Source: Squalus acanthias (Eukaryota). From it: a stretch of 64,000 nucleotides of DNA. The DNA lies in NCBI GenBank assembly GCA_030390025.1, contig CM059431.1:107510001-107574000 (forward strand), read 5' to 3'. Under the pieces are notes generated by a model. It was not told the origin of the DNA and searched no databases. It saw only the letters and a program-made list of their open reading frames with translations. A program made the position numbers and the translations under genes. Each line of letters starts with the position of its first letter. The stretch's first letter is position 1. Positions 1-60,706 of the stretch are shown one piece after another.

Positions 1-657
1 TCCACCATTGCACTTGCCACAGCCGGTAACCCAGCTAGCCCAGACTGCAGCCGCCCATGCAGAGTTGGTGTAGTCTGCAGCCGGGCCCTCCAGGCCCAGA
101 GCTGGTCGAGGGCGTCCTGCAGAGCCATCTGCAGTCTCTGGATCCAGCATTCAGCAGCCTTCCGCCAGCCTTGCTGCAGCCACTGGGGCCACATTACGGA
201 GGAGCAGTAGGGTGGGAAGGAGGGATATGTGGAGGGGAGGGAGATCATTGAAGAAGGCCGAATAACTAAAATTTTTCAAACATTTGGAGGGAATGTTTGT
301 AGCAAATTTGGAAGTGTATGTAAATATATTGTTCACTCTGTTAAGACTTATTTCGATGTGCTAAGTACCAGTTTTGTTTGATAATGAATTGTTGTGTTTG
401 TTTGTTATTGGTTGTGCTTAATAAGACACAGTTGTTATGAAAAATAATTTTTTTTATTGAAACGTTACAAATTTCCTCATGTTACTCATTGGAACTTTGT
501 CCGGTAATATGGACTGCGGGATGGCTGTAATGATGTGCTTGTTGATCCCAAAAGCCATCTTCTCTGTCATTCATCAGAAGCGCTGTCTTATGAGGCGTTC
601 ACAAACGGTCCTTGCAGAAGCAACATGGAGCGCCTCCCTCCCACGTTGTTGCTGCTC

Positions 658-718
658 ATCCTCCTCTTCATCCTCCTCCTCCGCCTCCTCCTCCTCCTCC
701 TCTCCCTCTTCCTCCTCC
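658..718. repeat. (TCC)n microsatellite encoding the poly-Glu tail of the Harbinger transposase
   Basis: ctcctc run reads as GAG codons on the minus strand just before the transposase stop. Confidence 0.8.
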
Positions 719-957
719 TAGGTGGTCCACCAATCCCTGATGGCAATGGCTGGGTCCTCAGAATTACGAGGTTGTGAAGCATGCAGCACACAACAATGAA
801 AACCAATACTCGATCAGGGGAGTATTGCAAGGCTCCTCTGGAGTGGTCAAGTCACCAGAACCATTGCTTCAGCATGCTGATCGTCTGTTCAATGAGATTC
901 CTGGTGGCGCTATGGCTCTCACTGTAGGCGAGCTCAGCAAGAGTGTTGGGGTTACAG

Positions 958-2398
958 TGAAGGGATAATTACAAGTCCTAGCCCTTTTCGGGCTACCCCA
1001 GATCAGGCGTATTCCCCAGACGTTCACCTTCAACTAAAGTTAGCGGTAGCCAAATCCTAGAGACGCTTAATTGGGTCTAAAGGTTCAGACTACCTCTCCC
1101 TAAAGGAAAGAAACGGCCTGAAGATGTTACCATCCTCCGGATAGCACTTTTAACAAGTTTAACTAGACTGTAACCTTCTGGATATTTTATGAGGGTCCGG
1201 AAACCCCCCCAGAATTCTGCAACTCCTCACTGAAGAGTGTACAGAAATTGAGTTTGTGAGATTGATACAGAAATACTCTTTGAGACAATTTTAAAAATAT
1301 ATAGATTTATTAAAGAACCAACATCTAGTTAACAGCTTGTATGGCAATCACAACTTTAACCGTTCAAAATACAAATAGCTTACATTTCTTATCAGAGATC
1401 CTTATTCTCAAATCTTAACTTCGTTACATTTCCACACTTCTACTTATTTCTTAATCCAGAATATCCAACAAAATCAAATACCTTGATTACCCGAGACTCA
1501 GAGTTGTAGACCTACAGAGTGGTTCTGAAGGCAAGAATCGCTCTGCCCCTTCCCAGCGACTTCTGTTTTCTCATTTGAAAAGCTCTTACTTTTATACTCT
1601 TTTTTTAGTGGTATATTCTTTGAAGTTTTCTTTTGATATAAGCTAATTGTCTCTACTGATACTCTATTGAATTCTTTTCTATTCGTACTGTCATCTCAGC
1701 TGCCAACTTTTAGAATTCTGTCTCTACCTTTAGGTGTTTCAAAAACTATCATAACATGGTTATTAGAGATTTATCTTTTGATGCTATTCTTAGGAAGTCT
1801 TTCTATTGAATTCTTAATATCACTTAACTGCTTGTAAGCCAGACGTCGTGACTCCGTGGTGTTCCAAGTTTAACACATAAACAATGTGATTGCTTGGTGT
1901 CATCTATTGATATATTTTCAAAGCCTCTCTGTAGGTATCTTTTACAATATGTAAATCAAAACCACTTCTCTTAGGGTGTTTACTTGTTTTCTTGCTATCT
2001 CAATTGGTTGCATATTTAATCGTGTTTCCTGTCTTATTTGATGTTAATTTATGAAGGCATATGGTTGTTTAATGATCTAAGTTTCTGTTTCACTGAGTGT
2101 TAGCTTATAACACTTTACTTGGTTCATTCCATTGTGTTTCTCCCAAACTCCAGACCTTCTGGAAGCGCCAATGGTTTGCTTCAATAGGGGCATTGTTTTT
2201 GTGTTTACAACCATCTCCCATTTCAAAGCTTGTGGTGTTTTACAGCTTTTGTTTACACTTCACCTTATCTCAGAAGCCTGTATTGTGTTTGCAGCCTGTG
2301 TCACCGAGGGTTTCCAGACTTAGTATGTCATGTATTAATATTATCAAAATCTGTTCATAGGATGATATATATCTTGGAATATGGCTTATTCCATTACA
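958..2398 (-). mobile_element. Solo LTR (1441 bp) of an LTR retrotransposon or endogenous retrovirus
   Basis: TG...CA ends with an imperfect terminal inverted repeat (tgaagggataa / ttattccattaca). 4-bp TSD acag (954-957) / acaa (2399-2402). Removing it restores the transposase frame. Minus-strand TATAAAAG at 1589-1596 and AATAAA at 1306-1311 are in U3-R-U5 order. Confidence 0.8.
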
Positions 2399-5087
2399 AC
2401 AAAGCGGTGTCATCAGCCAGGTGCAGAGGGGATAACCCTTGTCCCCGAGGAGCCAGCCACGAGGTTGATGCAGAGGTTGGAACAGGTCTGGGACACCAGT
2501 CTGGCACAGGATGAATGCATCGTGGCTGCTGCCAGGATAGCGGGCATTGACAGCGAGGATGCGCTGTCTGTAGTTGCACACCAACTGGATGTTGAGAGAG
2601 TGGAAGCCTTTGCAGTTGCGGAAAACATCTGCATTTTCATGAGGTGCCCGCAATGCCACATGCGTGCAGTCAATGGCGCCCTGAACCATGGGGAAACGTG
2701 CTATCCTAGCGAAGCCACATGCGCGTTCACGCTGTTTGTCTCGAGTCATGGGGAATGAGATGTACTCCCTTCTCCTTTTGTAGAGAGCATTTGTGACCTC
2801 CCGGATGCAGCAATGGACAGCAAACTGGGAGATATTCGCTATGTCCCCAGTTGAAGCCTGGAAGGAGCCACTGGCATAGAAATTGAGAGCCACCTTCACC
2901 TTCACTGCCACCGACAGAGGCGTCCTGGTCCTGAGCTGAGGCTGGAGCTCTGGTTACAGGAGGTGCCAGAGCTCTGTGACCACCTCCTTGCTGAAGCAGA
3001 GCCTTCTAAAACACTGCTCCTTGGACAGAGGAATATATGAGAATTGATCCCGGAATACCCTGGGATGGTAGGGTCTCCTGTGCAGAGCCCTGTTGGCCTT
3101 CCTCCCTCTGGCCACGTTTCCACTCTCTCTCTCTCTACCTCCGCTACCTCCGACGATGAAGCTGGAGAACGAGGCCCCGTGCTAGTACAGCTCCCATTTA
3201 ATCTTCTAAATGTGGTAGTAATAAAGCTTACAGAAATGGGAACCTGAAAAGTCTTGCTGACGAACAAAACTCCTTCAAGTAGGATAGCGTTAAATGACTC
3301 CAGATGCCTCTCTCCCTCTTTCAACCTGCATATGCAGAATTGATTGCCGACAGGAAAAAGCAGGAAGCGCACGCCTTTAAATAGCACTCCCCCAGCTCCC
3401 AGCCGAATGCAAACCGTCCCCCTCTACCTGTCGTTCCTAGCGGCAGGTGCTGAGGCAGGGGACGAGAATCAATTTCCGGTCCGGGGCACTAACAGGGCGA
3501 TGCGCGCATGGATGACGTCATGATCTCCAGGCGCAGGAGATCGTGGCGGTAGTGTTTAGCGCCACCGCAAACCGCCAGGTCAATTTCGCGGGCGGCGCTA
3601 AAATCATTGCGCTCGGGCGGTAAGTTGTTAGTGCCCCGTTAGCGCCCCCTGGAGGTGCTGACAGGAGGCGCTAACCAACCAAATTTTTCCCCCTATATGT
3701 TCCCACATTTTAAAAAAGTTGAATACAATAAGGGTCTCGCTGGCTGCAAATCACACTCTGCATCTCAGACTGACAATGAAAACACAGCCTAAAACAGTCT
3801 TTTCGGCCATTCTGACTATTGGGTTTGTTGGCCTGTTGGTCAATAATTTTGCGCCCACTGTTACAGAAGGACATAAGTTTGAAGATGTGGATAGTATCTT
3901 AATATAAGATGAGGCATTTCAAATGTGAAATTTTCTTGTCTCCAAAAGATTGCCAAATTAAGTGTATTTACATTTCCCTTGATTTTACAATGTTACCTTA
4001 CATTTTAACTTCATTATATGCTCAGTGGAGCAGAAGTAGACTTCACAGCATCCTGGCAACTTTTCACCTCCTTTCCAAATGCACATTCATTCCCATGTGT
4101 TAACACTGCACTCTGTATTGCTTCCATGCTATTGTGGTTTCCCTGTGGCCCATGAAATGTGGCAAGAAACAAAAGTCAAACACATTGCCAACACAAGGTA
4201 CCTGCCTGATACACGTTCACAACCTGAAATAAGGTAGCAGCAATGGCCGACATTCTCTTCTTCCACTGGTTGAGCCCAGTTCTTTTCTTCATCTGCTGCA
4301 TGGCAACGGCCCTTTGTATTCGTATGCTTGTGTAAAGTGAGGCACGTTGCGATCAGCCTGTACCGTATGCCTTCTCTGATCCTATACTTCATTCTCCACA
4401 ACCGGGATGGCCAGTGGAATACCCTTGGTCCCTATTTGGACAGAGATCAATTACAGCCCCCTCGGTTAACACCCACAGATAGCAGATGAGGTGAAGCATT
4501 AAGAACCTGTGAATAGCAATTAAATCCTGAGGGAAACAAACAGCTACTTGAGGCAACTACCAAGCAAATGGCCATTAAACAAAAGGGACCAACATGGTCG
4601 AATGGGTCAAATAAACAGTCGCATTTTAAATGGGCACTGTGCTCCAGCATAGACGTTTAGATACTTAGACCCAATTTCCTAGCCCTTAACACCACAGGCA
4701 CGTCTATAGTCCATTATATTGTGCTGTGTGCTACAAGTGCAAAGCTGACCTTAGGATTCAGCATCAGATACAGTGGAACACCTGCACCCAATGCAGAGCT
4801 CTGCTATAAGTACTGACCAATGCATTATTGACATCACAGTTTCTCTCATCATCTCCAGGAAAGATGTAATCAATAGAAAGAAAAATGTCTTCAGGTCGTC
4901 GTGTTGTATCTTCATACTCTTCCCTGGCATTATCATTATATTTGCCGTTTCCTACATTGCAACAGCGAGTATACTTCATAAATACTTCATTGGCTGTAAA
5001 GCTTTGGGACGTCCTGAAGTCGTGAAAGACATGATATATATGCAAGTCTTTCTTTTTCTTTTTGGTACTGCGTGAGAAAAGTCACAG

Positions 5088-22300: not shown

Positions 22301-23100
22301 TTCTCCTGAACTTGTCCTCTCCTGATCTTGTCCTCACATGAACTTGTCCTCTCGTGATCTTGTCCTCTCATGAACTTGTCCTCACATGAACTTGTCCTCT
22401 CCTAAACTTGTCCTCTCCTGAACTTGTCTTCTCGTGAACTTGTCCTCTCCTGATCTTGTCCTCACATGAACTTGTCCTCACATGAACTTGTCCTCTCTTG
22501 ATCTTGTCCTCTCATGTACTTGTCCTCTCCTGATCTTGTCCTCACATGAACTTGTCCTCTGGTGATCTTGTCCTCTCATGTACTTGTCCTCTCCTGATCT
22601 TGTCCACTTGTGATCTTGTCCTCTCATGTACTTGTCTTCTCATGAACTTGTCCTCTCCTGATCTTGTCCACTTGTGATCTTGTCCTCTCATGTACTTGTC
22701 TTCTCATGAACTTGTCCTCTCCTGAACTTGTCCTCTCATTAACTTGTCCTCTGGTGATCTTGTCCTCTCATGATCTTGTCCTCTCATGAACTTGTCCTCT
22801 CATGAACTTGTCCTCTCCTGAACTTGTCCTCTCCTGAACTTGTCCTCATGAACTTGTCCTCTCCTGAACTTGTCCTCTCCTGAACTTGTCCTCTCCTGAA
22901 CTTGTCCTCTCCTGAACTTGTCCTCTCATGAACTTGTCCTCTCATGAACTTGTCCTCTCCTGATCTTGTCCTCTCGTGATCTTTTCCTCTCATGAACTTG
23001 TCCTCTCCTTATCTTCTCCTCTCGTGAACTTGTCCTCTCATGAACTTGTCCTCTCCTGAACTTGTCCTCTCATGGACCTGTTTCTCTCGTAAACTTGCCT
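19368..23100. repeat. Tandem satellite, 16-bp unit CTGAACTTGTCCTCTC, about 230 copies
   Basis: Directly visible. Variants ctcg/ctca/caca and tgatct/tgtact, degenerate edges, and an internal ~0.95-0.98-kb higher-order duplication. Confidence 0.98.
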
Positions 23101-31049: not shown

Positions 31050-31785
31050 GGCCCAAAAATTCGGCCGTTCCCGGGTGAGTACACAGTCCGTACTCACCCG
31101 TATTCATTCCCGAAGTGCCGGTTTCCTGCATGCACTGCGCATGCGCGGGAAACCGGAACTTCCGGTATGGTGAAGGGGGCTGTTCCTAGGTGAACCGCGT
31201 GCGCGCTAGAGGCTGCGCGCACGCAGCACACTTAGATTTTTTTTCAGGTTTCAACGCGAGGGTAAGTATTGAAGATTCTACGCTAATAAAAAGGAGGCGT
31301 AAGACCCCTTTTGAACAAGGTAAGTAGTTAAATAAGTATAATTTTAAATTTTTTCAACAGGTTTATCTTTTTTAGATACTTTAAAGAAAGGTAAGTTTAT
31401 TTTTATAACTTTTAAAAAGTATTTTAATTTTTTCAAAAATTTTAATTTTTGTTTAAAGTGGTTAAATGTGATGGTTTTTTAAAAATTTATTTGAGGTTTA
31501 GCTGTTCTTTTGGGGCTGATTTCAATTCACAGATTTGACAGGTCTCCTGTCAAATCTATGAATGAAAGATGGTCTGCTGCCATTGGCTCTCCATGGCCCA
31601 TGTGATCCCAGGGGTTGCATCGCACTAACTGCGCCCCTGGAACACGCAAGCACTGCGCGCCGGCACTTGGGAGAGGCCCGGGACCCGAAGTTCCCGTGGG
31701 CCCAAAACACAACGGCAGGCGCGGTGGGTAAGAGCGCGCGCGATCCTTACCCCCGCGGCAAGCCGGCCACGCGAATTTCTAGGCC
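31050..31785. mobile_element. Harbinger-type MITE, family A (copy 2, inverted relative to copy 1)
   Basis: Reverse complement of 7913-8669 with few differences. Flanks are aat / att. Confidence 0.9.
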
Positions 31786-33149
31786 ATTATGTATTAAATT
31801 GGTAATATTTAAAGCTGGGCAATTTGGCTCACGCAGCTTAGCGTAACTCAACCTTAGTACCAGAGAAAAGGACAAACTGCTACATTGCAATCAGTCAGGT
31901 GACTATAAGTAAGTGCTATTGCTGAATTTAAAACTGGGTGAATCCTCCTATCTGGTAAGCTACTCTATTCAGCGATATTTCTATCCCCTGTGTAATTAAA
32001 TGTCCCAGATAGTGTAGAGTCTTACTTCTGCGTGGTTTATAAGCTCAATTGAAAGGCTATCATTGTGCATTAAAAATAAGTTACTGAATTGACCTGCCTA
32101 CCATTGACCCTATTTGGAGTCTTGAGTTTTCCCAAATACATTTCTTAAAATATACTGCTGTTATCTCATCTAAGTTGACTATACCCTTCTGAATGAAATA
32201 CAGAGCGTCTTCTGCTAATCAATGAAGTCTCCACTTAGAGCAGTAAATCTTAATGGCCTCATTAATATTTAGCTGTTTCTAACTGTTTTCTAAGGGAAAT
32301 AATGAGATCTTGCAAGCATTGGCATTTTTGTTGGAGTTGAAAATTAATAATTAATTCCTTTACAATAAAAACACTTTTTAAAAAATATTCCCGGTGATGT
32401 TGTCCATTTTCTCAGTATCGCATTATTATTCAAATGGGTCTAGCAAAATACAGCAGTAATAAAAATTACAATTATGTGTATGAGCAGTTAATAAAAATTG
32501 GTATGAAACTGCAGATCAGCTGCAACCCTTATATTGGTCTCATGCAGCCCTATAATTTCAAACGTATGGAACAAATTAACAATGAATTTCTTTTTTCCAA
32601 GAGTCCTCAGGGAGAATAATTTAAGGCCTAGAAATTGGTTTGCACTGGCCTGGAACTGGGCGCAGTGAGTGATTCCTGCAAGGGAACGGGTAGGCCTGAT
32701 GCACACCTGATATTGGGGCTCGGGCCTCATTTAAAAGAGACATCTCGCCGGGGAGTCGCCGCTGAATTATGATTCGCTGCCATGCCAACAGCGGCCCTCA
32801 ATCAGGACGGGGACGGGGGGGTGGGTGCGGAGAGGTGACTGGGAATGGGCAGAAGCGATGGGGAGAGAGCCGGGGGCGGGGGGTGCAATCGGGAGAGAGA
32901 GAGAAGCAATTAGGAGGTGGGGAGGAATGATTGGAAGAGGGGGTAAGCATATTGGGACAAGGACGGGAGCGATCAGCTGGCGGCAATCGGGAGAGAGCTG
33001 AGCGGGAGCCAGCAACAAACTTCAGCTCCACATTCATTTACGTATCTTTTAACAAACTTATCTTTTTGATGGCGGCCTCCAGTGGTTCCTTTAAGAAACG
33101 ATTTCCTGAACATAGCCGTCTCAGTGCCATCTGTGTTCAGGGCAGACTT

Positions 33150-34445
33150 AGGCTGGAGTTTTGTGGAAGAAGGCGGTTTGGGGGCGGGGGGTCTCCGAGA
33201 CGGTCTGGAAACCTGGGAGCCGGGTTTCCTGCAGGCCCTGCTGACTTTAACGGCAGGGCCTGATTTGCATGTGAGGCCTCGGTTTCCCGCCCGCAGCCAG
33301 CCAGATTGAGAGGCTGGCTGGCTGCGGGCAGGTAGGCCTTCGGCTGAACAGAGGGGGGTGGGAGGGTTCACATGAGGGCCAGCTGATAAATGGATCGGGG
33401 TGTGGGGGGTTAGAGGATTGGGGGTCAGATCGGGCTGGGCCATTAAATGGATCGGGACGGGTGGTGGTGTGGGAGAGAGGATCGGGGGTCAGGCAGACAA
33501 TCCGGGGGGAGAGAGAATCAAGGGTCGGGCAGACGATCAGTGAGGGGGTAGAGGATCGGGGTGGGGGGGAGAGAGGATTGGGGGTCGGGCAGACGATTGA
33601 GGGGGAGAGAGAATCAAGAGTCGGGCAGACGATCGAAGGGGGGGGGGTAGAGGATCGGGCTGGGGGGGGAGAGAGGATTGGGGGTCGGGCAGACGATTGG
33701 GGGGGAGAGAGAATCAAGGGTCGGGCAGACGATCGAAGGGGTGGGTAGAGGATCGGGGTGGGGGGAGAGAGGATTGGGGGTCAGGCAGACGATTGAGGGG
33801 GAGAGAGAATCAAGGGTCGGGCAGACGATCAGTGAGGGGGTAGAGGATCGGGGTGGGGGGAGAGAGGATTGGGGGTCAGGCAGACGATTGAGGGGGAGAG
33901 AGAATCAAGGGTCGGGCAGACGATCAGTGAGGGGGTAGAGGATCGGGGTGGGGGGAGAGAGGATTGGGGGTCGGGCAGATGATTGGGGGGGAGAGAGAAT
34001 TGTGGCCGGCCTGAGCATCATCGCTGGGGGCAGGGTGGGGGGAATGCCTGGGAAGGCAATATGAGGTCTCGTGAGGGGTTCCCCGATTGCGGGGGTGGGT
34101 TAGGCAGGGACCCTGGATCCAGGAGGTAGGTATAAAGCCACTTACCTCCTGGATCCAGCAATCCTCGCCTTGCTGCAATTGCCGAATTTCATGAATTGTG
34201 TGAAACCCGTCCACATGCAGTTAAAAACAAAATGGAGGTTAAAAAAAGAGGCTTCCAGCCTCATTACAATATTTAAATTGACGTTCCGTCCCCTAAAAGT
34301 GAGTTGGTCGCCCGCCCTGTCCCGCCTCCGTTAAAACCAGAAGTGAGCGGGTCGGAGGCAGGATCAGGTCGGGATTCCCATTTTTAACAATTTAACTACC
34401 CCCACGCTCCGAACCCACCCATTTTTTAAGGTTAAAATTCCCCCC
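33150..34445. mobile_element. Harbinger-type MITE, family C (nested), with an internal minisatellite
   Basis: Termini aggctggagtttt / aaaattccccc. Homologous in reverse to 52140-52946. Confidence 0.8.
33470..34000. repeat. G-rich minisatellite, period about 96-100 bp, about 5 copies
   Basis: gagaatcaag recurs at 33513, 33609, 33709, 33805 and 33900. Subunits are ggtcgggcagacgat and gaggatcgggg. Confidence 0.9.
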
Positions 34446-39949: not shown

Positions 39950-42900
39950 CTAAGAATATAAGAATTAGGAGCAGGAGTCGGCCATTTGGCCCTTCGAGCC
40001 TGCTCCGCCATTCAATAAGATCATGGCTGATCTTCTACCTCATCCCCACTTTCCTGAACTATCCCCATATCCCTTGATTCCCTTAATATACAAAAATCTA
40101 TCGATCTCTGTCTTGAATATACTCAACGACTGAGCCTCCACAGCCCTCTGGGTTAGAGAATTCCAAAGATTCACCACCCTCTGAGTGAAGAAATTTCTCC
40201 TCATCTCAGTCCTAAATGGCCGACCCCTTATTCTGAGACTGTGACCCCTGGTTGTAGACTCCCCAGCCAGGGGAAACATCCTCCCTGCATCCACATTGTC
40301 AAGCCCTGTAAGAATTTTGTATGCCTCAATGAGATCACCTCTCATTCTTCTAAACTCTAGAGAATATAGGCCTAGTCTACTCAATCTCTCCTCATAGAAT
40401 AATCCCCCCATCCCAGGAACCAGTTTGGTGAACCTTCGTTGCACTCCCTCTATGGCAAGTATATCCTTCCTTAGGTAACAAGACCAAAACTGTACACAAT
40501 ATGCCAAGTGTGGTCTCACCAGGGCACTATATAATTGCAGTAAGATGTCTTTACTCTTATATTCAAATCCTCTTGTAATAAAGGCCAACATACCATTTGC
40601 TTTCCTAATTGCTTGCTGTAGCTACATGTTAACTTTCAGTGATTCGTGTACAAGGACACCAAGGTCCCTCTGAACACTAACATTTCCCAATCTCTCACCA
40701 TTTAAAAAATATTCTGCTTTTCTATTTTTCCTAACAAAGTGGATAACTTCACATTTCTCCACATTATATTCCATTTGCCATGTTCTTGCCCATTCACTTA
40801 ACCTATCTATATCCCCTTGAAGCCTCCTTGCATCCATACCCAGCTTTGTATCATCAGCAAACTTGGATATATTGCATTTGATCCCCTCATCCAAATCATT
40901 GATATATATTGTGAATAGCTGAGGCCCAAGCACTGATCCTTGCGGTACCCCACTAGTTCCAGCCTGCCATCCCGAAAATGACCCATTTATTCCTACTCTT
41001 TGTTTTCTGTCCATTAATAACCTCTTGTGTGGCACCTTATCGAATGCCTTCTGAAAATCCAAATACACCACATCCAGTGGTTCCCCCTTATCTATTCTGC
41101 TAGTTACAACCTCAAAAAACTCTAATAGATTTGTCAAACACGATTTCCCTTTCAAAAATCCGTGTTGACTCTGCCCAATCCTATTATTATTTTCTAAGTG
41201 CCCTGTTACCACGTCCTTAATAATAGAGTCTAGCATTTTCCCTACTACTGATGTCAGGCTAACTGGTCTGTAGTTCCCTGTTTTCTCTCTCCCTCCTTTC
41301 TTAAATAGTGGGGTTACATTTGCTACCTTCCAATCCACAGGAACTGTTCTAGAATCTATGGAATTTTGGAAAGCGACAGCTAATGCATCCACTATCTCTA
41401 TAGCCACCTCTTTCAAAACCCTAGGATGTAGGCCATCAGGTCCAGGGGATTTATTGGATTTCAGTCCCATTAATTTCTCCAGTACTACTTTTTCACTAAT
41501 ACTAATTTCTTTCAGTTCCTCATTCTCGCTAGACCCTTGGTTCTCCACTATTTCCGGGAAGTTTTTTGCGTCTTCTTCCTTGAAGACAGACACAAAGGGG
41601 GGAATTTTCCCAGCCCTGGGGAGGCGGGTATGGAGGCGGGACTGCTGGGAAAATGGCAGAAACTGGGAGCGGGTACCGAACCCGCTCCCAACCCGCCTCC
41701 GTGCCATCTTCCCGGGAGGCGGGTCCCCAACTAGCGCAGGGAACCGCCTCCTCGAGGTGGGAAGGGGATTAGAGCCAATTAACTGCCTGTTAGCAGGTAG
41801 TTAACAGGCAGTTTTGAGGCTTATCCCCATTTTGCCCCTGTAAGTGCGGGCTTCCCGACTGCTGCGAATCTCACCAGGGTCAGCGAGGCGAGCAGTGGGT
41901 CTGCGGGGGTCGGAGGGTTCGAAACGTCCGCTGTGGAGGTGAGTGATGGGTGCAAGTGTGGAGAGGTAAGTATGAGAGGTGAATGTAAAGTGATAGAAAA
42001 AGTTTACTTACCTTTGCTTCTTCCTGCAGGCTTCAACCCTTGGGGATCCGGAGGTGCCTTATCTCAACGGCAGAAGAAGAAGAGATGACAGAATGGCTGC
42101 TGCATTCTCAGATGAGGAAAGAGGTTTTGGTGAGTCTTTATGCAAGGGCTCAACTTAGAACAGAGATTGTCAGTGTTTGACAGCTGACAATTCATGTGTC
42201 AAAAATTTTCGACAGATGCAACGTCTTACGCTGATGTCCTCTGTCACCGGCTTTCCCTTAATTGACCAGCGAAGTCCGGAGGGCGGGCATAACAAGGTCA
42301 ATCAAGGGAAAATAGCGTGGGTTGGCCGGACGTTGTTGGGGGTGGGACTGAAACCCGACAACCAGCAGTCCCACCCCCAACGCGCCCCCATTGACAAAAT
42401 CCAGCCCAAAGTATTTGTTTAATTTCTCAGCCATTTCCTTATTCCCCATTATAATTTCTCCTGTCTCAGCCTGTAAGGGACCCACAATTACTTTCGTTAA
42501 TCCTTTCCTTTTTACATACCTATAGAAGCTTTTACAGTCTGTTTTTATGTCTCTCGCTAGTTTACTCTCATTCTATTTTCCATTTCTTTATCAATTTCTT
42601 GGCCCTCCTTTGCTGAATTCTAAAATCCTCCCAATCCTCAGGCTTACTACTCTTTTTGGCAGCATTATAAGCTGCTTCCTTTGATCTAATACTATCTTTA
42701 ACTTCTTTTGTTAGCCATAGTTGGACCACTTTTCCTGTGGTGTTTTTGTGCCTTAAAGGAATGTATATTTGTTATAAATTATGTATTAATTCTTTAAATG
42801 CTAGCCATTGCTTGCCTACTGACATATCTTTTAATGTAGTTTCCCAATCCACCTTAGCCAACTCGCCCCGTCATACCTACGCAGTTTGCTTTGTTTAAAT

Positions 42901-46349: not shown

Positions 46350-47025
46350 TTTAGTTTTTAAAACTGTTTGAAGGGCATGAGCCTCTTTGAAGTGGAAGCG
46401 GCTAACTTAGCAGCCGCTTACACTAACAAATGTAACAGGGGTAGAATTGCCACCGGGGGATCCCTAAACAACAGCAGAAAATTGGTGGAAACCCAAAGAA
46501 ATACCATGCATGGCCGTTTATGCCGGTTGTCCAGGGTTTCTGTGGATTTTCCACCAAAGTTACGGCAGCTAAGCAGGAGATTCACCACCGATGTGATTCA
46601 GAAACTGCTGCTTTAATGTGTACCAGCCAATCGTCTCTAACATATAAAAACAAAGTCACATCGCTGTGTGATATCAAACAACGTTGAAATTCACATAGCC
46701 AGTGTTTGTAGGGAACTGAATTGCTGGTTACACAGTTTACCTTGGAAAATCATAAAACAATTATCACATACAAAACCTTTGAAGTAGGTCATTTGCAATT
46801 TGACTAACTGGAGGATGTATGATGATAGATCAAAGTTTCCTCATTCACCCTTTCCCAGATGCCATTTTATGTATAAAAAAAACAAGCAGCAAATTTATTT
46901 TAGAGTTTAACCTTTACATTTTTTAGATTTCTTTCTAAATCTTGATCTTACAGCATTCGCCACTTCTCAAGGAACTCAATCTCCTGATATTTTTTTGCCT
47001 TTCAGATGTTGTGGGAAATTATGCT

Positions 47026-48708
47026 GTGATAGATATTCCTCACCTCGGTGGGTCCGGGGCGGGCGACGTCGGTGGCGGGTCCCGACCCCGCTGCTGGCTC
47101 CAGCCCGCTCTGGAAAATGAACTTACTTTAACGGGGCTTGTTAAGCCCGCCCCGCACGTTTCCTGGCCCAATTAGAAGGAGCGGGTCTGGTGACATCATT
47201 CATGACGCATCTTGAGGGACCATCTTAAAGGGACCATAGCCAACTTACTTTTGACATTTGTGCTGTCAGTGTTCTACAGCATTGAAGTGCTGCAAACACT
47301 GACAATGACTGCACAGAGGTGCACGGCTGCACCCAGGCTCTCCCCTGACTCCCTCCATGTGCTTATGGAGGGAGTCACAGCATACAGGGAGGTCCTCTTC
47401 CCTTTCCATGGGCAGAAGAGACCTCCCCAGGAGACCAACACAGCCTGGTTGCACATTGGACAGGAGGGCACAAGCAGGGATGTCATCAGGGGGACCAGGC
47501 TGCAGTGGCACAAACCTTTCAATGATCTCAGTAGATCATGAAACGTTAGTACAAAGCCACTCTCAACCTCATCCTGCTGTGCCTCTCAGCAGATCCCCAT
47601 CACCCTGCCTTCCCTACCCTACTCCTGCACATCCTTACACCAACTTACCTTGCACCTCCACCCATCCCTCTCTATCTACATTATCACATCCCCATCTCAC
47701 TAGCCACCCCTCACATTCACCCTAATCCTAGTGCCATCATACCAACTAACAACACACAAGGGTAGCCACTTGGGTGTTTTAGCCAATGTTCATGTAAAAT
47801 TTCTGTTAATGTGCTGTCAAATATTGAAACCTTTATTTTCAACACTTTGTGTTCTTGGACAGATTTGTGTGCACCTTGGAAGTGTCTTAGTGAGTTGTAG
47901 TGAATGGTGAGTTGTAACGGTATCCCCCGCAATGGTGATGAGTGTGAAAGGAATGGCTTGGACATTGTAGGGATACTTTATGTTGTTGGTGTGGGGTGGT
48001 GCCAACCTGGCACATCATGTGGCAGCCAGGGTGTACAGCATCAAGTGAAGTATATCTGGCCATGTGTGAGGTCATCCTTGGCCTCACAGGCAGCAATGTG
48101 CTCGGGTGTTGATGCCCTCTGTTCTGTGGTCGGATTCTGAGGACCAAGGTTGGGCAGTATAAAGGGCACCCATATTGATGGAATAGATAGCAGGTGAAGT
48201 AGAGATGATAGAAGCATTCTGTCAATGGTGAGAGAATTCTTCCAATGAGGTGAGAGTGGATGCAGAGTGGAAAGTGGAAAGCCTGCAGAATCAGTGCTGG
48301 AAATGGACTGAGAAACAGGTTGTGGCTGAGGAAAGTGATGATCTGTCACGTGGGAGCGTTTACTGTACATTTGAAGCTGTCAAGAAATCAGCTGGAGCAA
48401 TGGCCACTGAACTCCCGCCTCAGGTTGACAGCTGTGATCACCGAACAATGTGGTTCCCGTGGTCCTGCAGTTAAAGTCAAAAAGTAAGTTAAAAAAGTCT
48501 GTTAAGCATCTGTCAACTAGATGCTAGTGAGTTTAATTGGGTCCCCCGCCGCTGCTGGTTGGGTCTGCTCAGTGTTGACAGACCCGACATTGGGAAAGGT
48601 GCGTTGGAGCAGTTTGACAGCCGGTTTCCGACCCGCTGTAAAAAAAAACACTTTCCCACCTGACCCACCACCGATCCTGCCCGCTAACTCCCCGCAAAAT
48701 CTCAGCCC
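47026..48708 (+). mobile_element. Non-autonomous Harbinger retaining a Myb/SANT-like DNA-binding domain remnant
   Basis: 47305-47541 reads APRLSPDSLHVLMEGVTAYREVLFP..GQKRPPQETNTAWLHI..E.TSRDV..T.LQW.K.FNDL (MSANTD/NAIF1-like). GC-rich ends, right terminus aaaatctcagccc. Confidence 0.8.
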
Positions 48709-52139: not shown

Positions 52140-52946
52140 AAGGAATTTTAGCCTAAAAAAAGGGTGGGTTTAGAGCGTGGGGGTAGTTAAATTGTTATAA
52201 ATGGGACTCCCGACCTGAACCTGCCTCTAACCCGCCCTCTTCCGGTTTTAACGGCGGCAAGACGGGGGCAGGAATGGGGTGGGCAGCCAACCCGCTTCCA
52301 GGAGGCGGGACGTCAATTTAAATATTACAAGCGTCTTTTTTAACTTCCATTTTGCTTTTAACTGCATGTGGACGAGTTTCACGCTATTTATAAAACCCGG
52401 CAGTTACAGCAAGGCGGGGATCCAGGAGGTAAGTGGGTTTATACCTACCTCCTGGATCCAGGGTCCCTGCCTAACCCAACCCCCCCCATGATCAGAGATC
52501 CCCTCACGAGGCATCCGATCACCCACCGCACCCCCCCCCCCCCCCCACCCAGGCCTCTCCACCACCCCCACACCTCAATCATCCGGCCCCAATCCTCTCT
52601 CCCCTCCACCCCCCCGATCGCGGCCCAATGCCCCCCCCCGCCCCCCCGCCCGCCCCCAATCCTTTTCACGGCCCGGACTGATCCCCGATCCCTGGCTGAC
52701 ACCCCCATCAGCCCCCCCCCCCCCCGATTCTTTTAACAGCATGGCCCGATCCCTCCCTCCCTCCTCTGTGCGGCCTAGTGCCGCAGGCCTACCTGCCCGC
52801 AGCCAGCCAGCCTTTCAATCTGGCTGGCTGCGGGAGGGAAACCGTTAAAGTCGGCAGGGCCTGCGGGAAACCCAGCCTCCTGGGTTTCCAGCCCACCTCG
52901 GAGACCTCCCGCCCCCAACCCGCCCTCCTCCTTAAAATCCAGCCCT
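52140..52946. mobile_element. Harbinger-type MITE, family C (copy 2)
   Basis: Reverse homologue of 33150-34445 without the minisatellite expansion. Ends aaaatccagccc. Confidence 0.8.
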
Positions 52947-56551: not shown

Positions 56552-56622
56552 ATGAGGCAATAGGGGGAACAATGAGAGAAATCAAAGAATAAAGAGACAC
56601 AAGGTCAGGGACCTGAAACGTT

Positions 56623-57263
56623 GGGGGTGATTTTGCCAATGGAGGCGGGACTGCTGCTTGTCGGGTTTCAGTCCCACCTCCATTGACTTGTGGCCAACCC
56701 ACGCTATTTTCCCTTGATTGACCTTGTTAAGTCCGCCCAGGAGGCTTAGCAGGCCAATTAAGGGAAAGCCGGTTACAGAGAACATCAGCGTATGACGTTT
56801 CATCTGTCAAAAATTTTTGAGAGATGAATTGTCATCATTTGACAGCTCTGTGAAGCTGTCAAACACTGACATCCTCTGTTGTTTGATGATTTCTTGTATT
56901 CAAGGCTCATCAAACCTCTTTTGTGAGCAGAAATTAGATGGCTGTTGCATCGGAAAATGCAGCAGCCATCTGTCATCTCTGCCGGTGAGATGCGAGAGTC
57001 TCCGCATCCCCTACTGTTGAAGCCTGCAGGAAGAAACAAAGGTAAGTAAACATTTTCTATCACTTTCCACTCACCTCACATACTCACCTCTCCACACTTG
57101 CGTCCATCACTTACCTCCACAGCGCACTTTTGTACCCCTCTCACCCCCGCAGACCCTCTGCTCGCCTCGGTGACCCTGGTGGGGTACCCGCCCCCAAATT
57201 CTGCCATTTTCCCAGCAGTCCCGCCTCCAAACCCGCCTCCCCAGGGCTGGCAAGATCGCGCCC
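56623..57263. mobile_element. Harbinger-type MITE, family B (copy 2, internally deleted)
   Basis: Termini gggggtgattttgcc / ggcaagatcgcgccc, flanks gtt / att. Homologous to 41597-42407 in reverse. Confidence 0.85.
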
Positions 57264-57363: not shown

Positions 57364-58211
57364 GGGCTGGATTTTGAATCTGGGGTCGGGTTGGGGTCGG
57401 GAATCACACATTCTGGCTTGTGAACCCGCCTCCATCGAGATGTGGCCAACCCACTGTATTTTCCCTTGATTGACCTTGTTGAGCCCGCCCAGTGGGCTCA
57501 GCAGGCCAATTAAGGGCCACCCGGCAACAGGTGACGTCACAGACTGACATTTCATCTGTCAAGAGCTTTTGACAGATGAAATATCAGCGTTTGACAGCTC
57601 TGTGAAGCTGTCAAACACTCACAATATGATTTCTAACTTCAGTCCTTCCTCTCAGGCTGAGTTAGAAATCATTCCAGCACAGAAAACAGAAGGCTGCAGG
57701 TTTTGACAGAACCACGGCTTTCCTGCTTTCTGTGCCGGTGAGATTTCTAACTCCCGAGAACTGAAGGGCTGACACCTGCAGGAGGAAGTTAAGGTAAGTA
57801 AAACTTTTCCCAACACTTAGCACTTACCTTACACACTTACCTTTGCACACATGCACCCATCACTCACCTGCCCACCGGACATATCGACCCCTCCAACCCC
57901 TGCAGACCCACGGCCCGCCCCGATAACTTGGTGTGGTTGCCACCTGTCGGGAAGCCCACACTTTTCTTTTTAAAATAGGGATTATGCAAAACATTGCCTG
58001 TTAACTACCTGTTAACAGGCAGTTAATTGTCACTAATCCCTTCCCGCCTCGGGGAGTCGGGTCTCAGAACAGGTCGGGTACCCGCCGCCAGAGAAACTGG
58101 CATAGAGGCGGGTTGGAGTCGGGATGGGGTCGGGACCCCCGAATCTGCAACTTTAACCCCCCCCCCCACCGCCTGCAAACCCGACTCCACGGGTCATTGA
58201 AAATCCAGCCC
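57364..58211. mobile_element. Harbinger-type MITE, family B (copy 3)
   Basis: Termini gggctggatttt / aaaatccagccc, TSD AGA. Confidence 0.9.
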
Positions 58212-59740: not shown

Positions 59741-60706
59741 ATAAAAACAGAAAATGCTGGAAATGCTCAGCAGGTCAGGCAGCATCTGTGGTGAGAGAAA
59801 CAGAGTTAACGGGGGGAGAAATTGGGAACGTTAGCGCCTCCCGGGGGGGGTGGGCACTAACGGGGCGCTAAGCGCTTACCGACCGGGCACAGCGAGATGA
59901 TCGATTCCCGCTATATTTGGCGGGAGGTTTGCGGCAGCAGTATGGCGTTGCGCCCAGATCTCCTTCGCCCGCAGATCGTGACGTCATCGCCGTGCGCATC
60001 GCCCCAGCAGCGCCCCAGTCCCAAACTTCGGTTCCGCCTCCTGCTGCATGACACCGACAGCTGCAGGAAGCGTTCATCGGGAGGCCGGGCGTTTCAGGGG
60101 CGATACTTAAAGTCGAGGTAGCCGAGGTAAGTGAAAAAAGTTCTGAAATGCTCTTGCTTTTTTTTTTCGTTCTCTTCTCCAGCGCTTGATCAGCCCAGCA
60201 CTCTGCTGCAGTGCATCGGGCTGATCGGGCCGGATCGCGGCTGCCGTCGGGGACCAGGTAAGTTTTGCCCTTGCAGAGCCTGCAGCGATGGCCCTTCCCT
60301 TTGAGGGAGGGAAGGAGCCTTCCAACGCGGCAGCGCTGCATGGCCCAGTGTGCTGTGCACCTACCGCCCCGCCTGCTGCCTGTGGAGCTCCAGGAAGGAA
60401 GTGGAACACTTGATTTAGCGCCCCACCTCCTTCCCAGAGCGCAAACCCCCCAATTTTTTTTAAAGTTGAAAATCATTAGCGCCTGGCACTAATTTTTCAA
60501 CTTTTAAAAGTTAGCGCCCCAAACGGGGCTATGATGAATTTCTCCCCCCACGTTTCAGGTCGGTGACCTTTATGTCAGATTGGGTCATTGACCTGAAACG
60601 TTAACTCTGTTTCTCTCTCCACAGATGTTGCCTGACCTGCTGAGTATTTCCAGCATTTTCTGTTTTTATTTCAGATTTCCAGCATCCGCAGTATTTTGCT
60701 TTTGCA
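59741..60706 (+). mobile_element. Penelope-like terminus (family P2) with inverted duplication and a MITE inserted
   Basis: 14-bp TSD tcagaatttctgac (59727-59740 / 60707-60720). 59741-59810 plus 60550-60561 is the reverse complement of about 60588-60670. Confidence 0.78.
59811..60549. mobile_element. Harbinger MITE, family D, related to the element at 1-3693
   Basis: TIRs gggggagaaatt / aatttctccccc. The first ~200 bp align by eye to the reverse complement of about 3480-3693. Confidence 0.88.

Follow-up and report, generated by a model that had tools for sequence, protein, structure and literature searches.

Three copies of a non-coding transposable element in a 64-kb stretch of Squalus acanthias DNA (the window, whose own positions are used below) carry an intron-like cassette of 91 or 92 nt that is intact on one strand in every copy. 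We give a probability of about one half to the reading that this cassette is a 5'-leader intron of a transposase gene, retained by the element together with a mirror-image antisense donor. The feature is non-random, and the original prediction of two spliceable introns running antiparallel over the same DNA was not supported. The word intron is used here for a reading of motifs only.

Family B and its convergent relative

The three family B copies are non-coding PIF/Harbinger-type MITEs (Table 1). All three have imperfect TIRs of about 12 bp and 3-bp TSDs (AAA/AAA, AGA/AGA and GTT/ATT), copies 1 and 3 measure 811 and 848 nt, and the BLAST identities were 77%, 68% and 71%. Copy 1 was inserted into a decayed reverse-transcriptase region, with an RT-like ORF alongside, which we take to be CR1-like. 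An empty paralogous site at 60583–60665 confirmed the insertion point of copy 2; the same search found none for copies 1 and 3. Harbinger elements, according to the available sections of PMC9179366 and PMC9392472, produce a 3-bp duplication and possess a transposase and a Myb-like gene. In the family B copies, tblastn with 120 transposase homologues revealed no transposase coding (best E only 0.15), and a Myb HMM found no coding remnant above noise. The family occurs three times in 64 kb, and 32,291 contigs of run X11, whose molecule type is not on record, matched copy 1 at 80% likeness; this figure is not a copy number, and the word depth of the X11 and X1 contigs served neither as copy number nor as a measure of expression. 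Rfam gave 0 matches in the 64-kb window, and pattern scans gave 0 loci in metagenome, viral and prokaryote genome contigs.

Table 1 Elements and splice-like features of the window
Feature	Positions	Strand	Remarks
Family B copy 1	41597–42407	+ (transposase-sense)	Imperfect TIRs of about 12 bp; TSD AAA
Family B copy 2	56623–57263	−	Internal deletion in transposase-side end; TSD GTT/ATT
Family B copy 3	57364–58211	−	TSD AGA; TIRs near-perfect
Transposase-side terminal segment of B	41597–41904	+	Homologous to 48681–48464 and to family A ends
Intron-like cassette, 91 nt	41939–42029	+	Donors 41939, 41966, 41979; branch TACTTAC; CTGCAG acceptor
Antisense donor AAG/GTAAGTA (GT 42011)	42005–42013	−	Inside 13-nt invariant run 42002–42014
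Antisense intron of the original prediction, 81 nt	41931–42011	−	Acceptor in 2/3 copies
Alternative antisense reading, 111/111/112 nt	41901–42011	−	AG at 41901 invariant in 3/3 copies
Least conserved segment of B	42030–42160	+	50/119 columns invariant; weakly colinear with leader downstream of 48283 acceptor
Myb-side terminal segment of B	42161–42407	−	Homologous to 47057–47306; stops at Myb ATG position
Internally deleted convergent Harbinger	~47025–48708 (left end and left TIR approximate)		Myb on +, transposase on −
Family A inverted repeat	52418–52459, 34113–34158		Arms of 17–19 bp: back-to-back donors GAG/GTAAGT and GAG/GTAGGT
Family C	31051–31790, 7906–8670		Copies 92% identical; perfect 11-bp GTGAGT donor hairpin beside one TIR
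Further MITE	59812–60549		56-nt intron-like cassette 60127–60182; second donor 60258
Harbinger transposase remnants	2156–3700, 30–956		

The insertion sites of copy 2 (56620–56622) and of the MITE at 59812–60549 (59809–59811) correspond, to within about 1 nt, to one and the same site of a short host repeat, and this near-identity suggests that the two elements may share a target preference. Hairpins are numerous across the elements, and the fold of the whole of copy 1 had a z of −11.6 (20 shuffles). TGACAG hairpins lie within the Myb-side terminal segment of B, and a 24-nt run at this promoter end (42291–42314), invariant in 3/3 copies, forms one arm of a hairpin. The same run is a depth island in the X11 contigs.

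The element at about 47025–48708 is a relative of B and not its direct parent, which was not seen in the window. On the + strand it keeps Myb exon 1 and the start of the following intron; on the − strand, the transposase has collapsed. The Myb/SANT exon starts at ATG 47305 (atlas score 0.87). A representative search returned 14 homologues of this exon, all 8 of those scanned carry PF13873, and a profile made from them gave the exon 66 bits; Pfam run on the exon itself stayed below the cut-off (E 0.07), and a homologue search in longer proteins accepted none of 11 candidates. The remnant on the − strand has its ATG at 48173, and its identity as a transposase comes solely from a C-terminal match (48111–47965) to one protein (P0106, E 3e-8). 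Because Myb lies on + and transposase on −, the two genes are convergent.

Both ends of B are related to those of this element. The segment 41597–41904 scored 84 against the transposase side (shuffle maximum 51, reached in 0 of 500; E 8.8e-5), and it also matched the ends of family A with E values of 8e-10 and 3e-8. The Myb-side end scored 66–78 against 47057–47306 (shuffle maxima 47–49, 0 of 1000 each; E 1.1e-11). The + strand of copy 1 is therefore transposase-sense and the − strand Myb-sense. We infer that B is roughly the leader plus the leader of a convergent parent that has lost both coding regions. In favor of this, the TIR-to-ATG leaders of the relative, 535 nt for transposase and about 279 nt for Myb with the left TIR approximate, add up to about 814 nt, against 811 nt in copy 1 and 848 nt in copy 3.

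Three further MITE families in the window have donors 210–320 nt inside one end. Measured from the transposase-side TIR, the first donor stands at 342 nt in B copy 1, 344 nt in B copy 3, 286 nt in A copy 2, 300 nt in A copy 1 and 316 nt in the element at 59812; in family C, counted irrespective of parent orientation, the first donor outside the hairpin comes at 211 nt, and one strand has three strong donors besides those of the hairpin. The left end of the 59812–60549 MITE matches the 5' end of a transposase element at 3693–3455 (66.5%), and its 56-nt intron-like cassette lies on that side, which counts for the leader-intron reading. The window also contains a transposase remnant of the DDE_Tnp_4 type; its closest relatives among named proteins are those called 'putative nuclease HARBI1' in sharks and rays. 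The remnants at 2156–3700 and 30–956 are both on the − strand, and the first of them has short sequences resembling acceptors ahead of a probable ATG near 3175. A G-rich tandem repeat that expanded within copy 1 of family A (33400–34000) has made this copy longer. A separate, strongly strand-skewed array of at least about 175 copies of a 16-nt unit runs from 19307 to about 22400–23000.

The cassette, its antisense mirror and RNA reads

In copy 1, the + donors GAG/GTGAGT at 41939 and GAG/GTAAGT at 41966 precede an acceptor ttcttcctgCAG ending at 42029, and on the − strand a donor AAG/GTAAGT at 42011 precedes an AG ending at 41931, all as predicted. Both arrangements recur in copy 2, from 57114 to 57024 (91 nt) and from 57042 to 57122 (81 nt). 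For copy 3, one + donor and three − donors had been reported; these are present, but the positions given were hexamer ends or off by one, the GTs being at 57794 (+) and 57827, 57840 and 57867 (−), and the transposase-sense intron, which is kept whole in this copy (57867 to 57776, 92 nt), had been missed. The acceptor of the 81-nt intron is lost in this copy, which reads GTGG there.

The transposase-sense cassette is intact in 3/3 copies (91, 91 and 92 nt), each with a GT donor, a branch motif, a pyrimidine tract and an AG. Three GTRAGT donors are present, the third being at 41979 and 57074 in copies 1 and 2, and the acceptor is CTGCAG. Branch motifs TTTAC and CTTAC are located at −24 and −20 (branch A at −20), and 16–17 of 20 positions are pyrimidines (17 of 20 in copy 1). 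The donor and branch motifs conform to the U1- and U2-type consensus. TACTTAC, the branch motif, is identical to the − donor GTAAGTA in reverse complement, and on the − strand every + GTRAG donor becomes a CTYAC branch motif, at −10 and −37 from the 41931 acceptor or −40 and −67 from 41901. Because donor and branch site are reverse complementary, a single intron with repeated donors yields an apparent antisense intron. The geometry of the + intron is constant in 3/3 copies while the 81-nt − acceptor fails in one of three, which counts for the one-intron reading. On the transposase-sense strand of 3/3 copies, ACUUACCU is predicted to pair with an internal donor, the z values of the fold being modest (−1.8, −2.6 and −1.35).

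We examined the cassette in two raw RNA runs, X16 and X17, chosen by the species label of a run that contains 0.40 of the window words; their source is a related or identical species, and tissue and library strandedness are not on record. Reads from approximately 24% (X16) and 31% (X17) of each run were mapped to copy 1 at 80% likeness with a 2% listing floor, and 6,514 and 16,998 reads matched (about 23,500). Among the 15 of 59 joints listed, none had GT..AG or CT..AC ends or skipped 91, 81 or 111 nt; each was covered by 0–2 reads, and rare joints may be hidden. Read depth peaked inside the cassette at 41933–41960 (3,014 in X16 and 5,707 in X17), partly through mapping to the most conserved part of B, compared with 813 and 1,490 just upstream of the cassette and 257 and 809 at 42045–42072. 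Thousands of colinear reads cross the antisense interval 42011–41931 unspliced. Within the joints listed, the cassette is thus mostly left unspliced in the bulk RNA of the two runs, and the idea of a spliceable intron in each direction found no joint to carry it where unspliced depth is greatest.

The largest groups of loose read ends, before 41937 and behind 41971, recur in X11 contigs and resemble colinear copies (24 of 1,359 listed). They represent a diverged, RNA-abundant subfamily that shares only the core from donor 1 to donor 2, and not splicing. Over 41933–41960, reads are biased to first-mate-+ by 9:1 in X17 and 2.7:1 in X16, which would be Myb-sense RNA if the usual stranded protocol was used. 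In X17 the bias flips near 42240, from first-mate-+ at 41905–42240 to first-mate-minus further right (42241–42352), and the flip, which may reflect divergent initiation or a mapping effect, coincides with a CCAAT/GC-box-like segment in the Myb-side end.

The leader-intron reading would account for these results as follows. The + cassette would be a short 5'-leader intron of the transposase gene of the parent, putatively spliced there, and the antisense intron would be its mirror image. The predicted fold-back of ACUUACCU onto an internal donor may explain why the cassette of the MITE is poorly spliced. The motifs would have been conserved by selection acting on transcribed parents or by ongoing exchange between these parents and the MITE.

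Constraint on the motifs and origin of the center

In the three-copy alignment of B, on which all conservation counts are based, 30 of 31 core splice positions in 41931–42029 are invariant, compared with 43 of 64 others (Fisher p 7e-4, a value inflated by picking positions for their match to the consensus); elsewhere in the alignment, 298 of 497 positions are invariant. A less circular sign of constraint is that position +3 toggles between A and G only, at all three + donors. Over its full length the interval (74/99) does not surpass its upstream flank (42/58) in conservation, and a non-splice island at 42291–42330 is more conserved (36/40). The splice motifs look constrained on the strength of this alignment: three copies share one architecture at 68–77% identity, yet the core is kept at 30/31 with toggling at +3, a pattern for which passive retention alone is insufficient and which counts against the leader-intron reading.

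Donors were scored in two ways, by counting strict GGTRAGT sites and by simply counting matches to a donor consensus. The window contains 36 GGTRAGT sites, whereas 200 dinucleotide shuffles, made in 1-kb blocks with the tandem array left out, gave 13.0 ± 3.6 (maximum 24). Opposite-strand pairs within 120 nt were found at 5 loci belonging to 2 families, against a shuffle mean of 0.1 (maximum 1). Eight MITE copies, with approximate boundaries and 6,623 nt in total, account for 26 of the sites, and the 54,277 nt elsewhere for 10.

These counts bear on a different, rather unlikely explanation, that MITE lineages may themselves be selected for U1 sites, plus a U2-like site, on each of the two strands even though no productive splicing follows. 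Such sites might, again with low probability, keep the retained promoters transcribing or make premature termination in host transcripts less frequent. The constrained core (ascertained as it is) with its toggling at +3 and the enrichment in the eight MITE copies are in line with it, as are the donors that stand back to back on opposite strands of families A and C and the RNA-abundant subfamily that shares only 41937–41971 (donors 1 and 2). U1 at 5' splice sites suppresses the use of polyA signals, as the accessible part of PMC10760643 states; the same part states that promoter-proximal splice sites alone are insufficient for productive non-coding transcription, which counts against the explanation, as do the equally conserved non-splice island and the alignment of only three copies. 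Selection for U1 sites at the level of the MITE keeps some credibility because of the motif-level constraint and the recurrence in four families. In its widest form, which we regard as improbable but worth stating, several unrelated shark Harbinger MITE lineages would be under their own selection for a self-complementary cassette that loads U1 (and U2) in either direction without efficient splicing, the early spliceosome serving as a transcription or tolerance device. If that were true, selection for U1 sites would act on the RNA of non-coding cut-and-paste elements, and promoter retention and host tolerance within introns would become testable.

The likeness to splice sites would be coincidental if AGGTRAGT/ACTYACCT acted in DNA as an inverted-repeat site recognised by the Myb/SANT protein, by the transposase or by some host factor, which we consider doubtful. 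The elements are rich in hairpins, as the fold of copy 1 illustrates, the motif stands in the inverted arms of family A (17–19 bp) and family C (11 bp), and Harbinger terminal sequences are bound by Myb-like proteins according to the sections of PMC9179366 and PMC9392472 at hand. The motifs of B, however, are located about 340–410 nt from the nearest TIRs and not at the TIRs, and a DNA-level site leaves the correctly spaced pyrimidine tract and the invariant TCCTGCAGG unexplained.

As for the center of B, local alignment of 41905–42160 with the 47025–48708 element gave scores within those of shuffles and nhmmer gave no hit, which counts against the leader-intron reading; the middle of B likewise stayed within shuffles against either transposase leader in the window. 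The transposase leader of 47025–48708 contains an acceptor CTGCAG/GCTT at 48283, 110 nt before the ATG, and no strong donor was found upstream of it in that element; the acceptor counts for the leader-intron reading and the missing donor against it. Shuffles equalled or beat the anchored global alignments downstream of 48283 in 21, 3 and 7 of 1000 cases if the acceptor was part of the alignment, and in 140, 99 and 84 of 2000 if it was left out, a weak result.

An origin on the other side is also improbable, with the center being Myb exon 1 and the start of Myb intron 1, the antisense donor real and the + cassette its mirror, or with two separate leftovers, or with both introns spliced. A strong antisense donor is present at 47648 in the CA-rich Myb intron of 47025–48708, and copy 3 aligns locally to this intron (47610–47722) with a score of 63 against shuffle maxima of 62–63 (0–1 of 1000), which favors an origin of the center other than the transposase leader. 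Furthermore, CRKK or CRRK, a motif of Myb helix 3, is encoded just before the − donor in 3/3 copies, and the first-mate-+ bias over the cassette would fit Myb-sense RNA from the usual stranded libraries. Against this origin, copies 1 and 2 are not above shuffles locally (405 and 595 of 1000 reach the score), global tests against the Myb intron were reached by 716, 734 and 182 of 1000, and the Myb HMM finds nothing in B. Global tests against Myb exon plus intron were mixed (9, 421 and 64 of 1000). The motif stands about ten codons from the likely exon end in the 47305 gene and two in B, and thousands of reads cross the interval unspliced. A Myb-exon origin of the CRKK-like codons found no support from the profile. 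Because no Myb coding remnant was found in B and only one of three copies exceeds shuffles against Myb intron 1, one intron is likelier than two. The suggestion that the cassette is left over from a convergent Harbinger parent is supported for the ends and their orientation, with a single transposase-leader intron likelier than two introns.

Shielding of MITE transcripts from HUSH-type silencing by the mini-introns is very improbable: in the available text of PMC8770142, introns protect transgenes even when unspliced, but transgenes of 1 kb or less mostly escape HUSH, longer introns protect more, those of 0.13–0.4 kb giving limited protection or none, and spliced stuffer sequences do not protect, whereas the MITE is 0.8 kb (811 nt) with introns of 81–111 nt and moves as DNA.

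Implications and comparison with known systems

If the leader-intron reading holds, B is an ordinary MITE in which the two promoter-leader ends of the parent have been preserved, and an example of the branch site of one intron faking a second, antisense intron. A very abundant repeat would then spread strong 5' and 3' splice signals over the genome and would be a source of exonisation.

B resembles introners in being a DNA transposon with splice signals. Introners, reportedly DNA transposons from which introns arise (Huff et al. 2016), have a splice site at either end, and splicing takes out the entire insertion. In B the sites are internal, 342 nt from one end of copy 1 and 378 nt from the other, and splicing, which was not seen among the joints listed, would remove 91 of 811 nt. 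We rejected an introner reading, as the splice sites are not at the element ends.

Clusters of strong donors a few hundred nucleotides inside a putative promoter end recall U1 telescripting and promoter-proximal 5' splice sites (PMC10760643, in part). Unlike the cases described there, B is a non-coding mobile element with candidate U1 sites on both strands. It shares with HUSH-protective introns an intron-like sequence within a mobile element and differs in that both B and its intron are below the sizes showing repression or protection in the available text of PMC8770142.

The closest likeness in structure is to Tourist-like MITEs and other non-autonomous PIF/Harbinger elements, judged from sections of PMC9179366 and PMC9392472: B has TIRs, a 3-bp TSD and no coding, and shares its ends with an element that holds transposase and Myb-like gene remnants. 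The literature searched, with subscription journals and Repbase/Dfam annotations outside its scope, gave no description of a splice cassette in Harbinger MITEs, and the excerpts of PMC11872487 and PMC10901741 contain nothing on such cassettes. The TIR match of B, about 12 bp, is shorter than the 25–50 bp usual for PIF/Harbinger MITEs in the portions of the sources covered, and, unlike the MITEs described in these portions, B carries a conserved intron-like cassette.
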